A DNA stretch of 23,087 bases from an uncultured archaeon (GTDB lineage: Archaea; Asgardarchaeota; Thorarchaeia; Thorarchaeales; Thorarchaeaceae), in assembly GCA_964473825.1 (NCBI GenBank), contig CAYYQL010000038.1, forward strand, positions 1 through 23,087, read 5' to 3'. The notes beneath the pieces are model-generated. The model had not been told where the DNA came from. It made no database searches and saw nothing but the letters and a program-made list of their open reading frames with translations. Shown one piece after another: positions 772 through 7,629 of the stretch (position 1 is the first letter of the stretch; each line of letters begins with the position of its first letter). The position numbers and the translations under genes were made by a program.

Positions 772-1069
772 AGATAGAACATCCTAGGCGCACGCTGGTG
801 TCGTCTACAACGAATATCCTCTTATATGCACGCTTAGAACACGTGTACTAAGTTGCACCGAAGCCGCAATAGAATCAATATGAACATGGCTCAGAAGGAG
901 GCTGTGGTGCTTCATAGCTTCCACGGGAAAACAATAAATGCAGACTGCGTTAGCTCAAAGCAGTTGGCTCGTATATGACCATATAGATTGTGGTCTGTCG
1001 CAGGTAATGAAGGGCGAAGAATCCGTAGCCTGCAACCAAAGCAATAATCGCGAAGATGGAGTGGATCAA

Positions 1070-3058
1070 TTGAGTTCCTCAAAAAGAAGTGAATCAGCTG
1101 GCAAGAAGCGGTCCCATGAAACAGGGGACATCAAACAGGGTACAATAGCGAAATTCATGAGAAAGAGGACTCAGTTGGTTGGATTTGAGACAGGCCTGAA
1201 CAAGCATACACAGTACGCTATCGAGTTCTTAGATAACGCCATTGATGCTCTTGAGAGCTGGTGGTGGAGAAAGAAACGTAAACCGAAGCTGACTGACCAG
1301 CTTGGTCCAGAGATTATCAAGGAGATACGCGAGAAGCTTGAAGGAAAGACGATCGATTCAATTGCACGGTCCAAGAAACTGGAGAGAGACACCAAGGCAG
1401 GTCGGGAGGTAGATGTTCCTCCACGACAAAAGGAAACGTTGGATGAACGTATCAAGAGATTTAGGAAATTCCTCATACCGTTCCGCACGTTGATCAAGAA
1501 GAATGAGCCCTTTGCAGTGATGAAGCTTACTGAGGTCCATATGCCAGATCTTGTGGCGTTAGATGACGAGGAAGGTTTCAAAGTCTACGAGTTCACATGC
1601 TTCGATAATGGTATTGGGATGGTTCCTCAGGACCTTGAGAAGTTCGGCATCTATCTTGCATCAAGCAAGTCTGAGAAGCTTCGTCAGACACGAGGAAGTC
1701 AAGGCTTCGGAGCTCCGTCAGCATTCAGTGACGCGCAGAACACTACGGGGAAGCCCATCTTTACGGTCTCCAAGCGAATGGGTTCGAAGATGTCCACCGT
1801 TGCAGACTTCTACACAACGACCGAAAACACAAAGGACTATGTTGGCGGACCTAAACAGATGAAACTCCCATTCAAGCATGGGACTTACGTTCGGCTCAAC
1901 TACCTGAATATCCAGTATCGCAGAGGCTATGCAGACATATATGCAGAGATGGCCTCGCTTCTGAATTCACATGCTACGATTATCTTCATAGACCCCTATG
2001 GTGAGGTCCACATCTATCCGCGACGAGTCAACAAGTTTCCTGAAGAACCCAGATTTGCCCAACCTCATCCTGCAAGCATCAGAATCGGTGAGTTTCAGGA
2101 CCTTCTACGAGAAACCAAGGAGAAGACTATCAAGAGATTTCTGACGAAGGCTTTCACCCGTTTGTCTACAAATAAGGCGAAGGACATCGTCAAGGCGGCG
2201 AATGCGGAGCTTGGGAAGAGACATCTTGATAAGATTAAACTCGGCGCTCCTCCTAGGAGCCTGAGTAAGGTTCAGGTAGAGCTGCTCTATCGTGCTTTCT
2301 CTAGTGAGGACTACTACTCTCCCCCTACCGACACCGTCGTCCCAGTAGGTGAAGAGGTATTCGAGCAGACGATAAAGATGGCCTACAAGCCCGACTTCGT
2401 GACATCGGTTACCAGGAAGCCAACATCGGGCAAAGGTCTCTCTTTTGCTGTTGAGGTGTGTATTGCATATGGAGGAGAGATTGAACCCGCAACATCTGCG
2501 CCGATGGTTCTCTGGAGATTCGTCAACCGTGTACCCAAGTTGCGTGATAACAGCGATTGTGCTACCTGGAAAGCCTGTACTATGGTGAACTGGAAGAACT
2601 ACAAGCTGAAAACATTTGACAACGGTATACCTCGAGGCCCTGTTATGGTCTTCATCCATGTATGTGGTGCCTACGTGCATGTCATGTTCAAAGGACAGAG
2701 CAAACAGGCCTTAGCTGAGGATGAGGTTCTGCTCAAAGAAATCAAGCTTGCTCTTGAAGAGGCCGGCCGTAAATTCAGGCGTTATATCACGCGAAGAGAA
2801 ACTGCGAAGCGCAAGGCAAAACGAGCGGGCATTCTTGCTATGTACGCTGATCAGTTCACACACAGTCTCGTCACGATAGCAAATGGTTATGTGGGAAAGG
2901 AGGTATACGATGCGGAAACTCTGGCAAGCAAGATACGTGATTCGATTACCGGATTTGAAACACAAGAAGACCTAGATGAGACCGAAACGGACTCTGAAGG
3001 AAGCGATTTAGTTTCTGATGTGCCGCTTGGTGAGGGTGAGGAATCTGAGGAGGAATAG
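1070..3058 (+). CDS. top6B: DNA topoisomerase VI subunit B (GHKL ATPase, H2TH and transducer domains) with an ~80-aa insert and an acidic C-tail
   Basis: GHKL boxes EFLDNAIDA, DNGIGM, QTRGSQGFG, HGT; PHP; RFVNRVP; VNWKNY; GQSKQAL; directly upstream of top6A. The ORF is open from 938, but TTG at 1070 (GGAG 8 nt upstream) or GTG at 1061 is the more likely start. Confidence 0.93.
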   Translation: MSSSKRSESAGKKRSHETGDIKQGTIAKFMRKRTQLVGFETGLNKHTQYAIEFLDNAIDALESWWWRKKRKPKLTDQLGPEIIKEIREKLEGKTIDSIARSKKLERDTKAGREVDVPPRQKETLDERIKRFRKFLIPFRTLIKKNEPFAVMKLTEVHMPDLVALDDEEGFKVYEFTCFDNGIGMVPQDLEKFGIYLASSKSEKLRQTRGSQGFGAPSAFSDAQNTTGKPIFTVSKRMGSKMSTVADFYTTTENTKDYVGGPKQMKLPFKHGTYVRLNYLNIQYRRGYADIYAEMASLLNSHATIIFIDPYGEVHIYPRRVNKFPEEPRFAQPHPASIRIGEFQDLLRETKEKTIKRFLTKAFTRLSTNKAKDIVKAANAELGKRHLDKIKLGAPPRSLSKVQVELLYRAFSSEDYYSPPTDTVVPVGEEVFEQTIKMAYKPDFVTSVTRKPTSGKGLSFAVEVCIAYGGEIEPATSAPMVLWRFVNRVPKLRDNSDCATWKACTMVNWKNYKLKTFDNGIPRGPVMVFIHVCGAYVHVMFKGQSKQALAEDEVLLKEIKLALEEAGRKFRRYITRRETAKRKAKRAGILAMYADQFTHSLVTIANGYVGKEVYDAETLASKIRDSITGFETQEDLDETETDSEGSDLVSDVPLGEGEESEEE

Positions 3059-3061
3059 TTC

Positions 3062-5302
3062 ATGGCTACGAAGCGAAAGAAAGGGGAAACTGTTCAGATG
3101 ACTCTAGATGCTGCCAATGCGAAGAGTGAGAAGATGCAGAGCAAACTGATGGACTTGTCCGGTGTTGGAGAGAAGACCGTCGAGAGCCTTCTCAAGGCAG
3201 GATACGACTCTCCGGAAAAGATAGCAAAGTCGAGCGTAGGTACTCTGGCCAAAAAAGTAGATGGAGTGGGGAAAGGAACGGCGGAGACAATTATTGCAGC
3301 TGCCAAGAAGATGGTGAAAGCACCGACGACGAAGACCAGCCGAAGGAAGACCACCAAAGGGGTGAAGAAGAAACCTCAATCTGCGATCTCGATGACCAAG
3401 CTTCCAGGTGTGGGCGCGAAGACAAGAGAAAGTCTCATTGCAGCTGGTTATGATTCTGTTGAGAAGATTTCAAGCTCGAAGCCGTCCGAGATTGCGAAGG
3501 GCGTCGAGGGGGTAGGAAAGAGCACCGCGGAGAAAATTGTGAGAGCAGCCAAGAAGATGTCAAAACCTCCGAAGAAGAAGTCAAAACCGAAGAAGAAATC
3601 CAGAACCGAACAACCAACGAAAAGCGATGCTCTTGAAACATCAATGACATCTCTTCCGGGTGTGGGGGCCAAGACGCGGGACAGTCTTATTGCAGCTGGC
3701 TACGACTCCGTGGAGAAGATTTCACGTTCGAAAGCATCAGTGATTGCCAAAAATATTGACGGTGTTGGTACGAAGACAGCTGAAGCCATTGTAAAGGCGG
3801 CAAAAGAGATCTTACCACCGGAAGAGCCGGAAAGCCCTGATATTTCCATGAAGGATCTTCCTGGCGTCGGCCCCAAGACAAGGGACGCTCTAGTTGATGC
3901 AGGGTATTCATCAATAGCGAAGATATCAGAGACAAAGCCAACTGAGATTGCGAAGGCAGTTGACGGTGTTGGAAAAACCACGGCCGGGAAAATTGTTAAA
4001 GCGGCACAGGAGCTAGTGGGATCAGAACAAGAATCTGTGGAAGAGCCCAAGCCCTCTATGAGGCCTGTCAGACCACTCAAGAAGGTTCCCGAACGAGAAA
4101 GGGCTAAACCCGTGAAGAAGAAGTCTGGCCTGCCAGTGCCCGAGACAGTCATACAACTTGAGAAGGAAATGAAGGAGAACTGGGCGGAGGCTCAGAAGAA
4201 GATTGACCAGAGAGAAGTCCAGAAGACAATGAAGGTCTCGGCACTCACTGCCGATGAGACCGAGGAACGGTTGGTCAAGGAAGTTGAGATGATTCTTAAT
4301 GAAATAGTTACCACCGGGCGGCCTGCCTTCGAGATTCCTAGTAGGTCATCGGATAATATCGTATGGGACGAGGTGCGCGACCTGCTACTTCTTGGTATGA
4401 AGAAGATATCTCGCCCCTATCACTCACTCGGTTCTGTTGTTGATGCAACGCGCACGGCACGTCTGATGGAGATTGTCTTCCAACTGCTTCAGTCTAATCT
4501 ACACGCAACAAAGCGAGAAGTATTCTATAGTGATGTCAATCTATTCCGAGACCAGAAGTACAGTGATAGAATCATGGAAGATGTAGCCTCGATGCTTCAG
4601 ACAACCCGTGACAGCATCCACATTGTAGCTTCTGCCAGAGGTTCTGCGATGGGAAGGGTCGTAATACGAGATGGAGGTGACCTGATTGACCTGACAAAGA
4701 TGGGCACTGGTGGATGGGCTATCACCCCGTTTCTTGATCAGGTCGACATCGTCGAGAGCGATGCCGAATTCATCATCATGTCAGAGAAGGACGCTGCTGT
4801 CATGAGGTTAGCTGAGGCAAAATACTGGAACCGACAGCCGTGCATTGTACTGACTGGGAAAGGTTCAGGAGACATCGCTACTCGCGCATTTTTGAAGCGC
4901 CTTGTTCGAGAACTGGAGATTCCGGCCTTTGCTCTGGTAGATTCCGACCCCTACGGGCACTATATCTACTCTGTGTTTCTGCGGGGTTCCAAGAGGCTTT
5001 CATACGAATCGCCATTCATCGCCACACCCGAACTGAAGCTTCTGGGTGTTCTGAGCCGTGATCTTGATGCGTATAACATCCCCAAAGCCGTGCGTATCCC
5101 AATGGAGCCGACGGACATGAAACGTGTCAAGGATATGCTGAAAGAAGATTTTGTTCAGAGCAATAAGGAATGGGTGGAGGACCTCCGGCTGATGCTCAGG
5201 CTCAAAGAGAAGGCAGAGATTCAGGCCTTTGCCAGTCATAGCTTCGAGTTTCTCACAGACGAGTACCTTCCTACCAAGCTGGAAACCGGCGATTGGATCT
5301 AA
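3062..5302 (+). CDS. top6A: DNA topoisomerase VI subunit A (Spo11/Top6A family) with an N-terminal array of four (HhH)2 domains
   Basis: C-terminal ~350 aa contain the catalytic-Tyr motif ATKREVFY, TOPRIM SEKDAA, TGKG, DSDPYG and KAEIQAF. N-terminal ~320 aa hold four LxGVG...AGY...GVG repeats. GAGGAGG SD upstream. Confidence 0.93.
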   Translation: MATKRKKGETVQMTLDAANAKSEKMQSKLMDLSGVGEKTVESLLKAGYDSPEKIAKSSVGTLAKKVDGVGKGTAETIIAAAKKMVKAPTTKTSRRKTTKGVKKKPQSAISMTKLPGVGAKTRESLIAAGYDSVEKISSSKPSEIAKGVEGVGKSTAEKIVRAAKKMSKPPKKKSKPKKKSRTEQPTKSDALETSMTSLPGVGAKTRDSLIAAGYDSVEKISRSKASVIAKNIDGVGTKTAEAIVKAAKEILPPEEPESPDISMKDLPGVGPKTRDALVDAGYSSIAKISETKPTEIAKAVDGVGKTTAGKIVKAAQELVGSEQESVEEPKPSMRPVRPLKKVPERERAKPVKKKSGLPVPETVIQLEKEMKENWAEAQKKIDQREVQKTMKVSALTADETEERLVKEVEMILNEIVTTGRPAFEIPSRSSDNIVWDEVRDLLLLGMKKISRPYHSLGSVVDATRTARLMEIVFQLLQSNLHATKREVFYSDVNLFRDQKYSDRIMEDVASMLQTTRDSIHIVASARGSAMGRVVIRDGGDLIDLTKMGTGGWAITPFLDQVDIVESDAEFIIMSEKDAAVMRLAEAKYWNRQPCIVLTGKGSGDIATRAFLKRLVRELEIPAFALVDSDPYGHYIYSVFLRGSKRLSYESPFIATPELKLLGVLSRDLDAYNIPKAVRIPMEPTDMKRVKDMLKEDFVQSNKEWVEDLRLMLRLKEKAEIQAFASHSFEFLTDEYLPTKLETGDWI
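3146..4015 (+). repeat. Four degenerate ~168-bp (56-aa) intragenic repeats encoding tandem helix-hairpin-helix domains: 3146-3313, 3392-3559, 3644-3811, 3848-4015
   Basis: Consensus L(P/S)GVGxKTxxxLxxAGYxSxxKIxxxxxxxIAKxV(D/E)GVGxxTAxxIVxAAxx seen four times; copies 2 and 3 are also clearly similar at DNA level. Confidence 0.92.
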
Positions 5303-5427: not shown

Positions 5428-6366
5428 ATGGTTGTTTCAAAGCTCGGAATACGCGTTGTTGATTCACATGCTCATTTCTTTACTTATGATAATATGAAAA
5501 AATGGCTGGAGGATGAAGAGAATGTGGAGCGAATGCAACAGAGGGTCAAATACCAAACCGACATGGATGAGCTCAAGCTTCCTGACGATCCCTGGGATGT
5601 CGGGAAGATGTGGATTGATGAGCTTGATAAGTACGGCATCTCTGCAATTGGGATGATGGTATCTCCGGAGGCGTGGGATGAGTTCAATGAGGCACGTCGA
5701 CGCTTTCCCTATCGATTCATGGGTTACGCAAACATAGATCCCACTCGTGATGATGTTGTTGAGCTTGTTGCACGGGCTGGAAGTGACGATTTTCAGGGAA
5801 TCAAGCTGTATCCGAGTACATGGGACTTCCCTGTCTACGACGAAAGAGTCTATCCGATCTACGAAGAGGCATTGCGTCAGGAATTGCTAGTTATACTCCA
5901 CTTCGGAATTACGATCGGTTCCAAAGCGAATCTACGCTTTGGCAATCCGTTGGATATCCAAAAGCCAGCTCAGGACTTCCCTGATCTCAACTTCATGGTT
6001 GCTCACTTTGGAGCCGGTTTCTTTCGAGAAGCACTTATGCTCATGTACCAAGTACCAAATGTCGTCATGGACACGAGCGGTAGCAATAGCTGGATGGACT
6101 ATCAGCCAATTGATTTGACAATCACCAAAGTATTCGAGCGAGCTCTGAAAGCTGGTGCATCTTGTCGGGTAGTCTTCGGGACAGACTCTTCATTCTTTCC
6201 GCGTGGCTTCCGTTACAACATCCTAGAGGAGCAGTTCAATGCAGTGAAGGCTATCTGCTCTCAAATGTGCTATTCATCCGATGATGTAGACCTGATCTTT
6301 AGCGGAAACATCCTGCGACTGACAGGATTTCGTCCGGCTGACTGGAGTGAATGGGTGCAGGACTAG
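5428..6366 (+). CDS. Amidohydrolase family protein (TIM-barrel metal-dependent hydrolase, Amidohydro_2-like)
   Basis: VDSHAH (HxH), FQGIKLYP, VILHFG, FPDLNFMVAHFG, VVFGTDS, IFSGNILRL; GAGG SD. Confidence 0.88.
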   Translation: MVVSKLGIRVVDSHAHFFTYDNMKKWLEDEENVERMQQRVKYQTDMDELKLPDDPWDVGKMWIDELDKYGISAIGMMVSPEAWDEFNEARRRFPYRFMGYANIDPTRDDVVELVARAGSDDFQGIKLYPSTWDFPVYDERVYPIYEEALRQELLVILHFGITIGSKANLRFGNPLDIQKPAQDFPDLNFMVAHFGAGFFREALMLMYQVPNVVMDTSGSNSWMDYQPIDLTITKVFERALKAGASCRVVFGTDSSFFPRGFRYNILEEQFNAVKAICSQMCYSSDDVDLIFSGNILRLTGFRPADWSEWVQD

Positions 6367-6372
6367 AGATGG

Positions 6373-7629
6373 CTAAGCTTTTCGTATCTTTTTCTCAAGG
6401 CCTCTTAGCCTCTTCTGGTCATCGCCCAGTCGGAACTTCTCTGCGGCCTCTTGATATAACGCAAGAGCATCACGTGACATTCCCTTCTTAACCAAGTCGT
6501 CTCCCTCTGACTCGATGAGCTTCCCCCAATCCGAATAGCATTCGCGGACCTTCTCAGCACACTTTCCACGCATCTTGGCATTTGTGGTGAACATGTAAAT
6601 CTCTCTTGCCTTCTTGTATTGCACAATAGCCCATTCGAACTCGTCTTCTTTCTTGTGCTCTTCTGCCTGGTCATAGTGGAATTCCGCCATGGCCTCATAT
6701 CCGTCATCTATTTTCTTGCGAGCATCATCAACCGCTTTCTCGTAGTTGGCTCTTTCAAATAGCTTCTTTGCCATTTCAAAGGACTCTATAGCTTTCTCAT
6801 GTTCATTTGCTTCGAGTAGCTCTTCTCCGTGCTCAATTCGCGCCTTTCCCATGGCTTCAAACACGTAGTCCGGATAATCGAATCCGTCTCCGGTGATTGC
6901 TGCTCCGCAACTCGGACAGCTTGGAGTCTTCAATTCCTTCATCGGTTCGTCGATTCCTATCCTCTCGGGTTTGCCGACTATTACATCGATGAACTCCTTC
7001 GAAGTTACCCCTCTTCCACTGGGAAACAGATGTGCAACCGTGTCAGTGGGGTCCTCGCATTCTCCATGGGGGAACAGATGATCGCGTGCTTCGCTCATTG
7101 ACGATTCTTCACACCGGCCATCCTCCACTATATCCGGAGGTTCAACCTCGATGAAGGGGTTTCCTACTTTCACATCATCTGGTGTTATGACCCTGTCTTC
7201 TGGAGCCTCCCATGTCAGGCTTTCTTCATCCATGCTCTTCGCTGATTCATCTTCATCCGAACGGATATCATCTACTTCCCAGCTGAGTGCCATGTCCGTT
7301 ACCTCCTGATCGGTTCCTTCGTCATGCAACTCCTCCGGCTCTTCTGTGAGAGGTTCTAGGTCTGACTCCTCAAGAGGCGGCAAGATATCTAACTCATCAC
7401 CCTCCTCTCTTGTAACCTCCAGACTGTCGCCATCTGCAAGCATGTTAGTCATCTTTGATTTCAGGGCCTCGAGTTCGGGATTAAGCTGAGTGGTATCCCC
7501 TCCTTCTTTGGGTGATTCCTCTTTAGCCTCCTCTTGTGGCCCGAGTCTCGTACCACATGTCATGCAATGGGTCGACCCTTTTCCCACGCGAGCTCCACAT
7601 TCTGGACAGAAGTTGATATCGGCCACCAT
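6373..7629 (-). CDS. Hypothetical protein: double zinc ribbon, long acidic linker, C-terminal TPR/SNAP-like helical repeats
   Basis: FCPECG...HCMTCG at the N-terminus; E/D-rich low-complexity middle; lone CPSCG; three helical repeats with A-x3-(F/Y)-x2-A-x3-(F/Y) patterns. Confidence 0.75.
   Translation of the reverse strand: MVADINFCPECGARVGKGSTHCMTCGTRLGPQEEAKEESPKEGGDTTQLNPELEALKSKMTNMLADGDSLEVTREEGDELDILPPLEESDLEPLTEEPEELHDEGTDQEVTDMALSWEVDDIRSDEDESAKSMDEESLTWEAPEDRVITPDDVKVGNPFIEVEPPDIVEDGRCEESSMSEARDHLFPHGECEDPTDTVAHLFPSGRGVTSKEFIDVIVGKPERIGIDEPMKELKTPSCPSCGAAITGDGFDYPDYVFEAMGKARIEHGEELLEANEHEKAIESFEMAKKLFERANYEKAVDDARKKIDDGYEAMAEFHYDQAEEHKKEDEFEWAIVQYKKAREIYMFTTNAKMRGKCAEKVRECYSDWGKLIESEGDDLVKKGMSRDALALYQEAAEKFRLGDDQKRLRGLEKKIRKA

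Follow-up and report, generated by a model that had tools for sequence, protein, structure and literature searches.

The window, i.e., the whole 23,087-nt stretch of DNA analysed here (contig CAYYQL010000038.1 of assembly GCA_964473825.1, forward strand), comes from an uncultured archaeon of the family Thorarchaeaceae and carries the two genes of a type IIB topoisomerase, topoisomerase VI (Topo VI), whose A subunit is extended by a long N-terminal arm of helix-hairpin-helix (HhH) modules. The Top6A gene (3062..5302, plus strand, like all features of the protein given below) is an open reading frame (ORF) of 746 aa plus stop, assigned by Pfam, NCBIfam and its homologues. An earlier interpretation made from the DNA letters (hereafter, the sequence-only reading) had described it as a Top6A/Spo11 homologue of this length with four tandem (HhH)2 domains, which both Pfam and NCBIfam bear out. 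Immediately upstream lies the gene of its Top6B partner (938..3058, plus strand; 706 aa), which comprises a GHKL ATPase and a transducer (Pfam Topo-VIb_trans, 8.9e-44; NCBIfam Topo VI-B, 1.2e-105) and aligns to the M. mazei Top6B structure 2q2e_B. The Top6B stop codon TAG (3056-3058) is found 3 nt before the Top6A ATG, and a GGAGG resembling a Shine-Dalgarno (SD) site can be read at 3049..3053 on the plus strand, 8 nt upstream of that ATG. The two genes are a co-transcribed two-gene unit on the plus strand.

The catalytic core and the N-terminal arm

The core of the window Top6A is a bona fide Top6A with an intact active site. Its 5Y-CAP (winged-helix) domain (4448..4624; TP6A_N, 4e-19, aa 463-521) holds the catalytic Tyr489 (nt 4526-4528) within KREVFYSD, and its Toprim domain (4769..5281; PF21180, 4.3e-53, aa 570-740) holds Glu575 (SEKDA) and Asp627/Asp629 (VDSDPYG). 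An alignment of 53 diverse Top6A sequences shows no variation at Tyr489, Glu575 or Asp627 and at least 90% conservation at Asp629. The full-length AlphaFold2 (AF2) model rests on a shallow alignment, and its core has a predicted local distance difference test score (pLDDT) of only 30-50; the core (aa 341-746) was modelled apart on the more diverse 53-sequence alignment, with a mean pLDDT of 93.5 and a predicted template modelling score (pTM) of 0.90. This core model matches the DNA-bound M. mazei Top6A 9o0g_A with a template modelling (TM) score of 0.89 and a root mean square deviation (rmsd) of 2.2 Å over 358 columns, the superpositions on M. mazei Top6A ranging from 2.0 to 2.2 Å. The 5Y-CAP and Toprim folds, the catalytic residues and the adjacent Top6B are shared with canonical Top6A (M. 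mazei 2q2e/9o0g, S. shibatae 2zbk, M. jannaschii 1d3y), whereas the window protein has ~380 extra N-terminal residues and is only 24-31% identical to the canonical proteins in structural alignments.

When aligned to 2q2e_B, the Top6B partner keeps the N-box, DNGxG, RGxQGxG, WKNY (the WKxY motif) and the switch Lys in SKQ. The N-box aligns at aa 67-106 and the remainder of the protein from aa 202; straight after the N-box helix of the GHKL fold stands a charged insertion of ~95 aa (aa 107-201), and the N-terminus is extended by ~58 aa (aa 1-58). The insertion is also found in several other Asgard families, shorter in two of them, and is therefore not specific to Thorarchaeota. Judging by the residues retained, both subunits look catalytically competent, and ATP-dependent strand passage by the enzyme is predicted.

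The NCBIfam Topo VI-A models align to the window Top6A from aa ~398, and residues 27-388 of S. shibatae Top6A correspond to aa 411-746, so that ~380 residues precede the canonical start. The sequence-only reading had counted about 390 residues ahead of the core; the figure holds for the distance to the canonical start, yet aa ~345-389 are common to the shorter Asgard orthologues, and the addition specific to Thorarchaeota amounts to ~340 aa. Within it, Pfam HHH_5 matches four stretches (~aa 28-83, 108-168, 188-245 and 263-320; E = 1.1e-45 for the whole protein), which HHH_5, a custom hidden Markov model (HMM) and the structure model together resolve into four (HhH)2 modules: module 1 at aa 25-86 (3134..3319; model pLDDT 89-95), module 2 at aa 109-168 (3386..3565), module 3 at aa 193-252 (3638..3817; also supported by the module comparison) and module 4 at aa 261-320 (3842..4021). 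The modules are diverged copies with pairwise aa identities of 46-70%, the highest value being that between modules 2 and 3, and all four keep both G-h-G hairpins (PGVG; DGVG or EGVG). They are joined, as the sequence-only reading had it, by Lys-rich or Pro/Glu linkers, which are delimited by their composition. Linker 1 (aa 87-108, 3320..3385) is basic, with a net charge of +8, and predicted to be disordered; linker 2 (aa 169-192, 3566..3637) is rich in Lys and Pro, with a net charge of +6, and is seen in the model as well; linker 3 (aa 253-260, PEEPESPD, 3818..3841) is acidic, with a net charge of -4. A mixed, mainly basic and disordered linker (aa 321-354, 4022..4123; pLDDT <50) then leads to two N-terminal helices (aa 355-418, 4124..4315), which are conserved in the arm alignment and common to other Asgard orthologues. 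These helices (361-383 and 397-417; pLDDT 78-98) lie where canonical Top6A begins and where the arm joins the core; by analogy with the holoenzyme structures 2zbk and 2q2e, they are presumed to be a Top6B-docking element. At the opposite end, the arm starts with a short tip motif (aa 9-19, ETVQMTLDAAN, 3086..3118), delimited in the arm alignment.

Overall, the arm carries a net charge of ~+32 versus -9 for the core. In the full-length model, the modules reach pLDDT values of 81-95 while every linker stays below 50, i.e., the arm is predicted to resemble beads on a flexible string. The model does not place the modules against the catalytic domain, and it gives the arm no fixed geometry. At the DNA level, the Top6A gene of the window holds no long tandem repeat, only an 18-21 nt repeat of Lys codons in ~3 copies (3551-3610), which encodes KKKSKPKKKS and hence part of linker 2. 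This short repeat is a likely hotspot for length change in the basic linker.

Distribution and module number

A metagenome-type assembly in 103 contigs invites the suspicion that the long ORF arose by misassembly or a gene-call error, all the more as repeats can mislead assemblers, and the sequence-only reading had also considered an internal translation start past the repeats. Independent genomes rule out the former. A genome of the same genus (G384) encodes a 746-aa orthologue of identical layout and 94% aa identity, and another (G383) has an 845-aa frame like that of P0002, a five-module homologue. Among 5.8 billion proteins searched, over 500 from independent assemblies proved to be homologues, the details below being those of the 120 listed. 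All 120 (531-953 aa) pair HHH_5 with Top6A domains; nearly all those that are named are labelled as Thorarchaeota metagenome-assembled genomes (MAGs), and their public labels read 'helix-hairpin-helix domain-containing protein', 'hypothetical protein' or 'meiotic recombination protein SPO11'. Since the modules have diverged and no long DNA repeat is present, collapse or expansion during assembly is unlikely. An internal start is ruled out by the conserved tip, the SD-like GGAGG and the ratio of nonsynonymous to synonymous substitution rates (dN/dS) relative to G384, with values of 0.12 for the tip, 0.25 for the array and 0.004 for the core. Values below 1 indicate that the arm is translated and under purifying selection, although far looser than that on the core. 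With long frames also present in most genomes of the family (see below), an artefact is effectively refuted and has next to no chance of explaining the arm.

The full protein was compared with 400 Asgard genomes, 85 from its own family and 315 others. Long-frame orthologues (~650-950 aa, 59-94% identity) occur in 78 of the 85 genomes of the family and in all 16 of its genera; the seven genomes lacking one have completeness values of 52-85%. The best match in other Asgard families spans only ~aa 340-746 (57-62% identity) and the frames measure ~395-416 aa. Among the loci that were fetched, that of the same-order sister family (G311) encodes a Top6A of 420 aa and those of seven other Asgard families encode Top6A proteins of 396-453 aa, none of them with HhH. 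At the sensitivity used, an HhH-armed Top6A was not found in the 315 other Asgard genomes. The orthologous Top6B lies upstream of Top6A wherever upstream DNA was fetched, the G124 locus ending at a contig edge. The window protein thus shares with the conserved Asgard Top6A (described in PMC12680538) an orthologous core, the same Top6B-Top6A operon and the same extra N-terminal helices, but differs from these 396-453-aa proteins in its ~340 extra residues with four modules.

In a global search, of which the top 150 matches were considered, with ~3,300 weaker ones ranking below them, the HhH arm was absent from the 10 cluster representatives with a long N-terminus; these carry unannotated extensions or inteins instead. 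Some Top6A proteins found elsewhere (P0135 and similar representatives of ~770-950 aa) contain a LAGLIDADG intein inside the Toprim region. Frames of 1,400-1,600 aa in another Asgard family had suggested a Top6B-Top6A fusion, but the one locus fetched (L018) has separate genes. In this locus (G166:C91) and in L011 (G397:C1), which represent two other Asgard families, Top6B is ~990-1140 aa long and has large insertions, possibly inteins.

The genome of the window (3.27 Mb, 95.7% complete) holds three Top6B-Top6A pairs. Pair 2 (contig 33, 329-2895 of the fetched locus, minus strand; 505 + 350 aa) looks canonical and retains Tyr, Glu and DxD. Pair 3 (contig 1, 541-3212 of the fetched locus, plus strand; 508 + 382 aa) is divergent: its A subunit sits on a long branch and its DxD position reads D-M-S, a substitution that may impair metal binding and cleavage. 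The window A subunit is 26-27% identical to these paralogues, and the B subunits are 27-29% identical. According to PMC12680538, several Asgard clades have a second Topo VI copy, and Thorarchaeia have a third. The possibility that the window gene is one of these 'extra' copies was rejected on the basis of a maximum-likelihood tree of 64 Top6A cores (SH-aLRT support in brackets), which places it with the conserved single-copy clade. The proteins with HhH modules fall into a single clade (100), sister to the arm-less family of the same order (99), and both are nested in the conserved Asgard clade (99), while the genome's own A2 and A3, i.e., the A subunits of pairs 2 and 3, sit in the other major clade (99). 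By these sequence comparisons, the window Top6A is the A subunit of the main, conserved Asgard-type Topo VI. This placement, together with the family-wide distribution, indicates that the arm was gained once, at the base of the family, on the conserved Asgard Topo VI.

Module number varies within the family: a profile made from the four modules of the window found, among the 120 homologues, two modules in 107 proteins, three in 2, four in 6, five in 1 and seven in 3, the last protein, a partial one, having a single module. Two modules are therefore the usual and ancestral state of the arm, and four, five and seven are lineage-specific expansions, so that the four tandem modules highlighted by the sequence-only reading turn out, once modules are counted across the homologues, to be a derived form. 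Judged by frame length, expanded forms occur in four of the 16 genera: that of the window and three others, whose frames measure 848-863, 777-779 and 951-954 aa. A tree of the modules (short and poorly resolved) places the added copies together by lineage and so suggests independent expansions. The arm is 292-422 aa long in two-module forms and ~585 aa in seven-module forms. Its median net charge is ~+50 with two to five modules and ~-8 with seven, and the seven-module orthologues (950-954 aa; P0003, P0004, P0007 and L015, i.e., G388:C171) have mostly lost the Lys tracts. This loss fits a view of modules and Lys tracts as interchangeable nucleic-acid binders. New in the window are the expansion to four modules and the way in which module number varies.

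The tip is conserved across the family. All 35 aligned sequences have its Q, T and L, and Q-x-T-L occurs within the first 45 residues of 113 of the 120 homologues. The family consensus reads basic residues followed by (T/I)(V/I)-Q-x-T-L-G-(E/D)-(L/V)-(V/I/L). Such conservation makes it plausible that the invariant Q-T-L tip docks a protein.

Relatives of the (HhH)2 modules

The best sequence matches of aa 1-389 among solved structures are the (HhH)2 domains of topoisomerase V (Topo V; 2.5e-8) and P. furiosus Rad51/RadA (4.6e-8), followed by other RadA N-domains, HhH-bearing eL32 and Hel308. Topo V of M. kandleri (5hm5, 8df7), the best PDB sequence match of the arm, is likewise a topoisomerase with a tandem (HhH)2 array, and the array matches the structure of its complex with DNA (8df7) over 369 columns. 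However, the Topo V matches cover only its HhH residues 400-466 and 624-692 and not its catalytic domain, which is unrelated to that of the window enzyme (type IC versus type IIB). Topo V also has 12 closely packed C-terminal domains, some with apurinic/apyrimidinic (AP)-lyase sites, in contrast to the two to seven N-terminal modules on disordered basic linkers found in the present family. The analogy with Topo V drawn in the sequence-only reading is thus sound for the type of module but not for its arrangement, the modules being here strung on disordered linkers.

With RadA/Rad51, the window Top6A shares the fold of the (HhH)2 N-domain, a single module superposing on RadA N-domains with an rmsd of ~1 Å over 58 residues at 33-40% identity, but it lacks a recombinase core. 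Neither a RecA-type ATPase core nor a polymerisation motif was found in Top6A: only the RadA N-domain is matched, and Pfam shows no ATPase. A RadA gene is present in the window, 4 kb downstream of Top6A. The specific capture of a RadA N-domain is nonetheless unsupported, as the modules are at least as close to those of two ribosomal proteins: they are 43-57% identical to the eL32/eS25 modules of their own genome versus 40-48% to the RadA N-domain. Two other genes 3′ of the Topo VI pair have no evident link to the operon; one encodes an Amidohydro_2 family protein (5428-6366, plus strand), the other a protein of 418 aa that has a zinc ribbon at its N-terminus and a long acidic stretch (6373-7629, minus strand).

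The eL32 and eS25 modules are the nearest relatives of the Top6A modules in the genome. The eL32 protein (C3:128239-129270) has two N-terminal (HhH)2 modules and a Lys/Pro linker, and eS25 (C4:129224-130237) has KEPKK repeats followed by two C-terminal (HhH)2 modules. Single HHH_5 modules are fused to Rpo6, to a HEAT-repeat protein, to a large leucine-rich repeat (LRR) protein and to a 659-aa protein without any other Pfam match; the loci of these four fusions are C1:281504-282175, C20:16557-17186, C10:3-2306 and C25:19422-21398. An extended Rpo6 N-terminus in Thorarchaeota has been noted in a 2026 paper (PMC13257274). In total, HHH_5 has 23 matches in the genome of the window versus 5, 6, 7 and 14 in four other Asgard genomes, and a match to NCBIfam PRK12766 shows that eL32-HhH fusions exist in other archaea too. 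In the lineage of the window, the (HhH)2 module is a promiscuous cassette.

Possible roles of the arm

HhH hairpins touch the phosphate backbone without sequence preference. By analogy, we infer that the (HhH)2 modules of the arm bind duplex DNA sequence-independently, and the reading that we favour, with a probability of roughly 0.6, is that the arm is a flexible DNA tether holding Topo VI on DNA. The arm combines a short conserved tip of docking type with disordered tracts rich in Lys and with (HhH)2 modules in one long, flexible and strongly basic extension. Since the arm joins the core at helices that, by analogy with 2zbk and 2q2e, meet the Top6B stalk, two arms per A2B2 enzyme, with eight modules in the present case, would hang beside the DNA gate. 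There, HhH hairpins and Lys tracts would bind the duplex backbone irrespective of sequence, the Lys tracts adding electrostatic affinity, and the enzyme would be kept on or near DNA between strand-passage cycles. Such tethering would raise either DNA affinity and processivity or the efficiency of local search. Several observations from other enzymes make this attractive. Topo VI of M. mazei works slowly, acts on supercoils in a highly distributive manner and is a poor binder of linear DNA (PMC8837201), the 12 (HhH)2 domains of Topo V touch DNA (PMC9489208), and Topo V HhH motifs grafted on polymerases raise their processivity and salt tolerance (PMC8313265).

Several points weigh against the tether. 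The DNA binding of the arm and its effect on activity are inferred, by analogy, from module type and charge alone, and modules on disordered linkers that do not pack on the catalytic domain limit the comparison with Topo V. The presence of the same module on eL32, eS25, Rpo6, HEAT and LRR proteins may reflect a broader function not specific to topoisomerases, for instance binding RNA or duplexes, localising the protein or making protein contacts. The array, at a dN/dS of 0.25, is far more relaxed than the core. In addition, the invariant tip suggests that the arm binds a protein partner, for which a pure DNA tether would have no use. This last point leads to an alternative in which a partner, most obviously the sliding clamp PCNA, docks on the tip as on a short linear motif, and the arm serves mainly as a long leash to replication forks. 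The near-universal Q-x-T-L with its basic flanks and low dN/dS is consistent with it, as are the genome's own C-terminal motifs of the PCNA-interacting protein (PIP) type (QSTLESFV, QSTLTDFL and QSRLTDFF, borne by putative ORFs), whose first six positions resemble the family tip Q-[AS]-T-L-G-[ED]-[LV]-[VIL]. Yet the tip is not a canonical PIP box (Q-x-x-[LIM]-x-x-[FYW]-[FYW]): it reads QMTLDAAN here, and where a PIP box has its defining aromatic pair, the family consensus has aliphatic L/V and V/I/L, the window Top6A Ala-Ala and P0002 of the same genus Ala-Ser. We regard recruitment as unlikely to be the main role of the arm, although such a leash can coexist with DNA tethering. It has also to be considered, in line with the stronger inference of the sequence-only reading, that the arms remodel the mechanism itself, by binding the flanks of the gate (G) segment or capturing the transported (T) segment, and so alter wrapping or bending, the recognition of crossings or topological preference. 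The attachment of the arms at the N-terminal helices beside the A-B junction and the number of modules per A2B2 would suit this role, and Topo VI is known to sense crossings and bends via accessory DNA contacts (PMC5922973). Nevertheless, it is rather improbable: the linkers are long and disordered with no fixed geometry predicted, two to seven modules on an arm of ~290-590 aa are hard to square with a defined wrap, and the genome keeps two more Topo VI pairs, so that the need for a new activity is not evident.

A more general explanation would see in the HhH and Lys-rich cassette a lineage-wide tag that sends nucleic-acid machines to a common environment or partner rather than tuning the chemistry of the topoisomerase. 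The spread of HHH_5 over translation, transcription and repeat proteins of the genome, the closer identity of the Top6A modules to those of eL32/eS25 than to RadA, the higher count of HHH_5 matches and the Rpo6 extension of Thorarchaeota would all accord with such a tag. The case for it is a census, however; eL32-HhH fusions in other archaea show that the cassette is not unique to the lineage, and the comparison genome with 14 HHH_5 matches (G117) comes some way towards the count seen here, which leaves this explanation very improbable. A speculative combination of these ideas, to which we give little credence, takes the arm as one instance of a Thorarchaeota (HhH)2 and Lys-tract cassette that is carried by Topo VI, eL32, eS25 and Rpo6 and would co-localise or couple these machines on nucleic acid; it would make a distributive, crossing-sensing Topo VI tethered and processive, with a module number tuned from two to seven by lineage.

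The HhH-armed Top6A is a clear and apparently undescribed architecture: in the literature searched on Topo VI, Top6A or Spo11 in connection with Asgard, Thorarchaeota or HhH, no account of a type IIB topoisomerase with HhH modules was found, and the main text of PMC12680538 makes no mention of HhH. The sequence-only reading, which knew of no such Topo VI, is upheld to this extent, but the arm is not peculiar to this locus, being widespread in one Thorarchaeota family. Accessory DNA-binding appendages are common in topoisomerases, so that the likely function is unsurprising. The C-terminal beta-pinwheel of GyrA/ParC and the C-terminal region of eukaryotic Topo II are non-catalytic DNA-binding appendages that tune DNA handling; the analogy with them is functional only, as folds, position and geometry are unrelated and the arm has no predicted wrapping surface.

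Archaeal Topo VI is related to Spo11, which makes the DNA breaks of meiosis, and to the Topo VI of plants. The present family offers a natural, family-wide Topo VI with a built-in putative nucleic-acid-binding arm, in the Asgard clade whose conserved Top6A is reported (PMC12680538, 2025) as the sister of eukaryotic TOP6A/SPO11. The arm has an engineered counterpart in the polymerases onto which Topo V HhH domains are grafted. With two, three, four, five or seven modules, and Lys tracts that apparently trade off against them, the family provides a ready series for relating tethering to processivity and substrate choice in type IIB topoisomerases.

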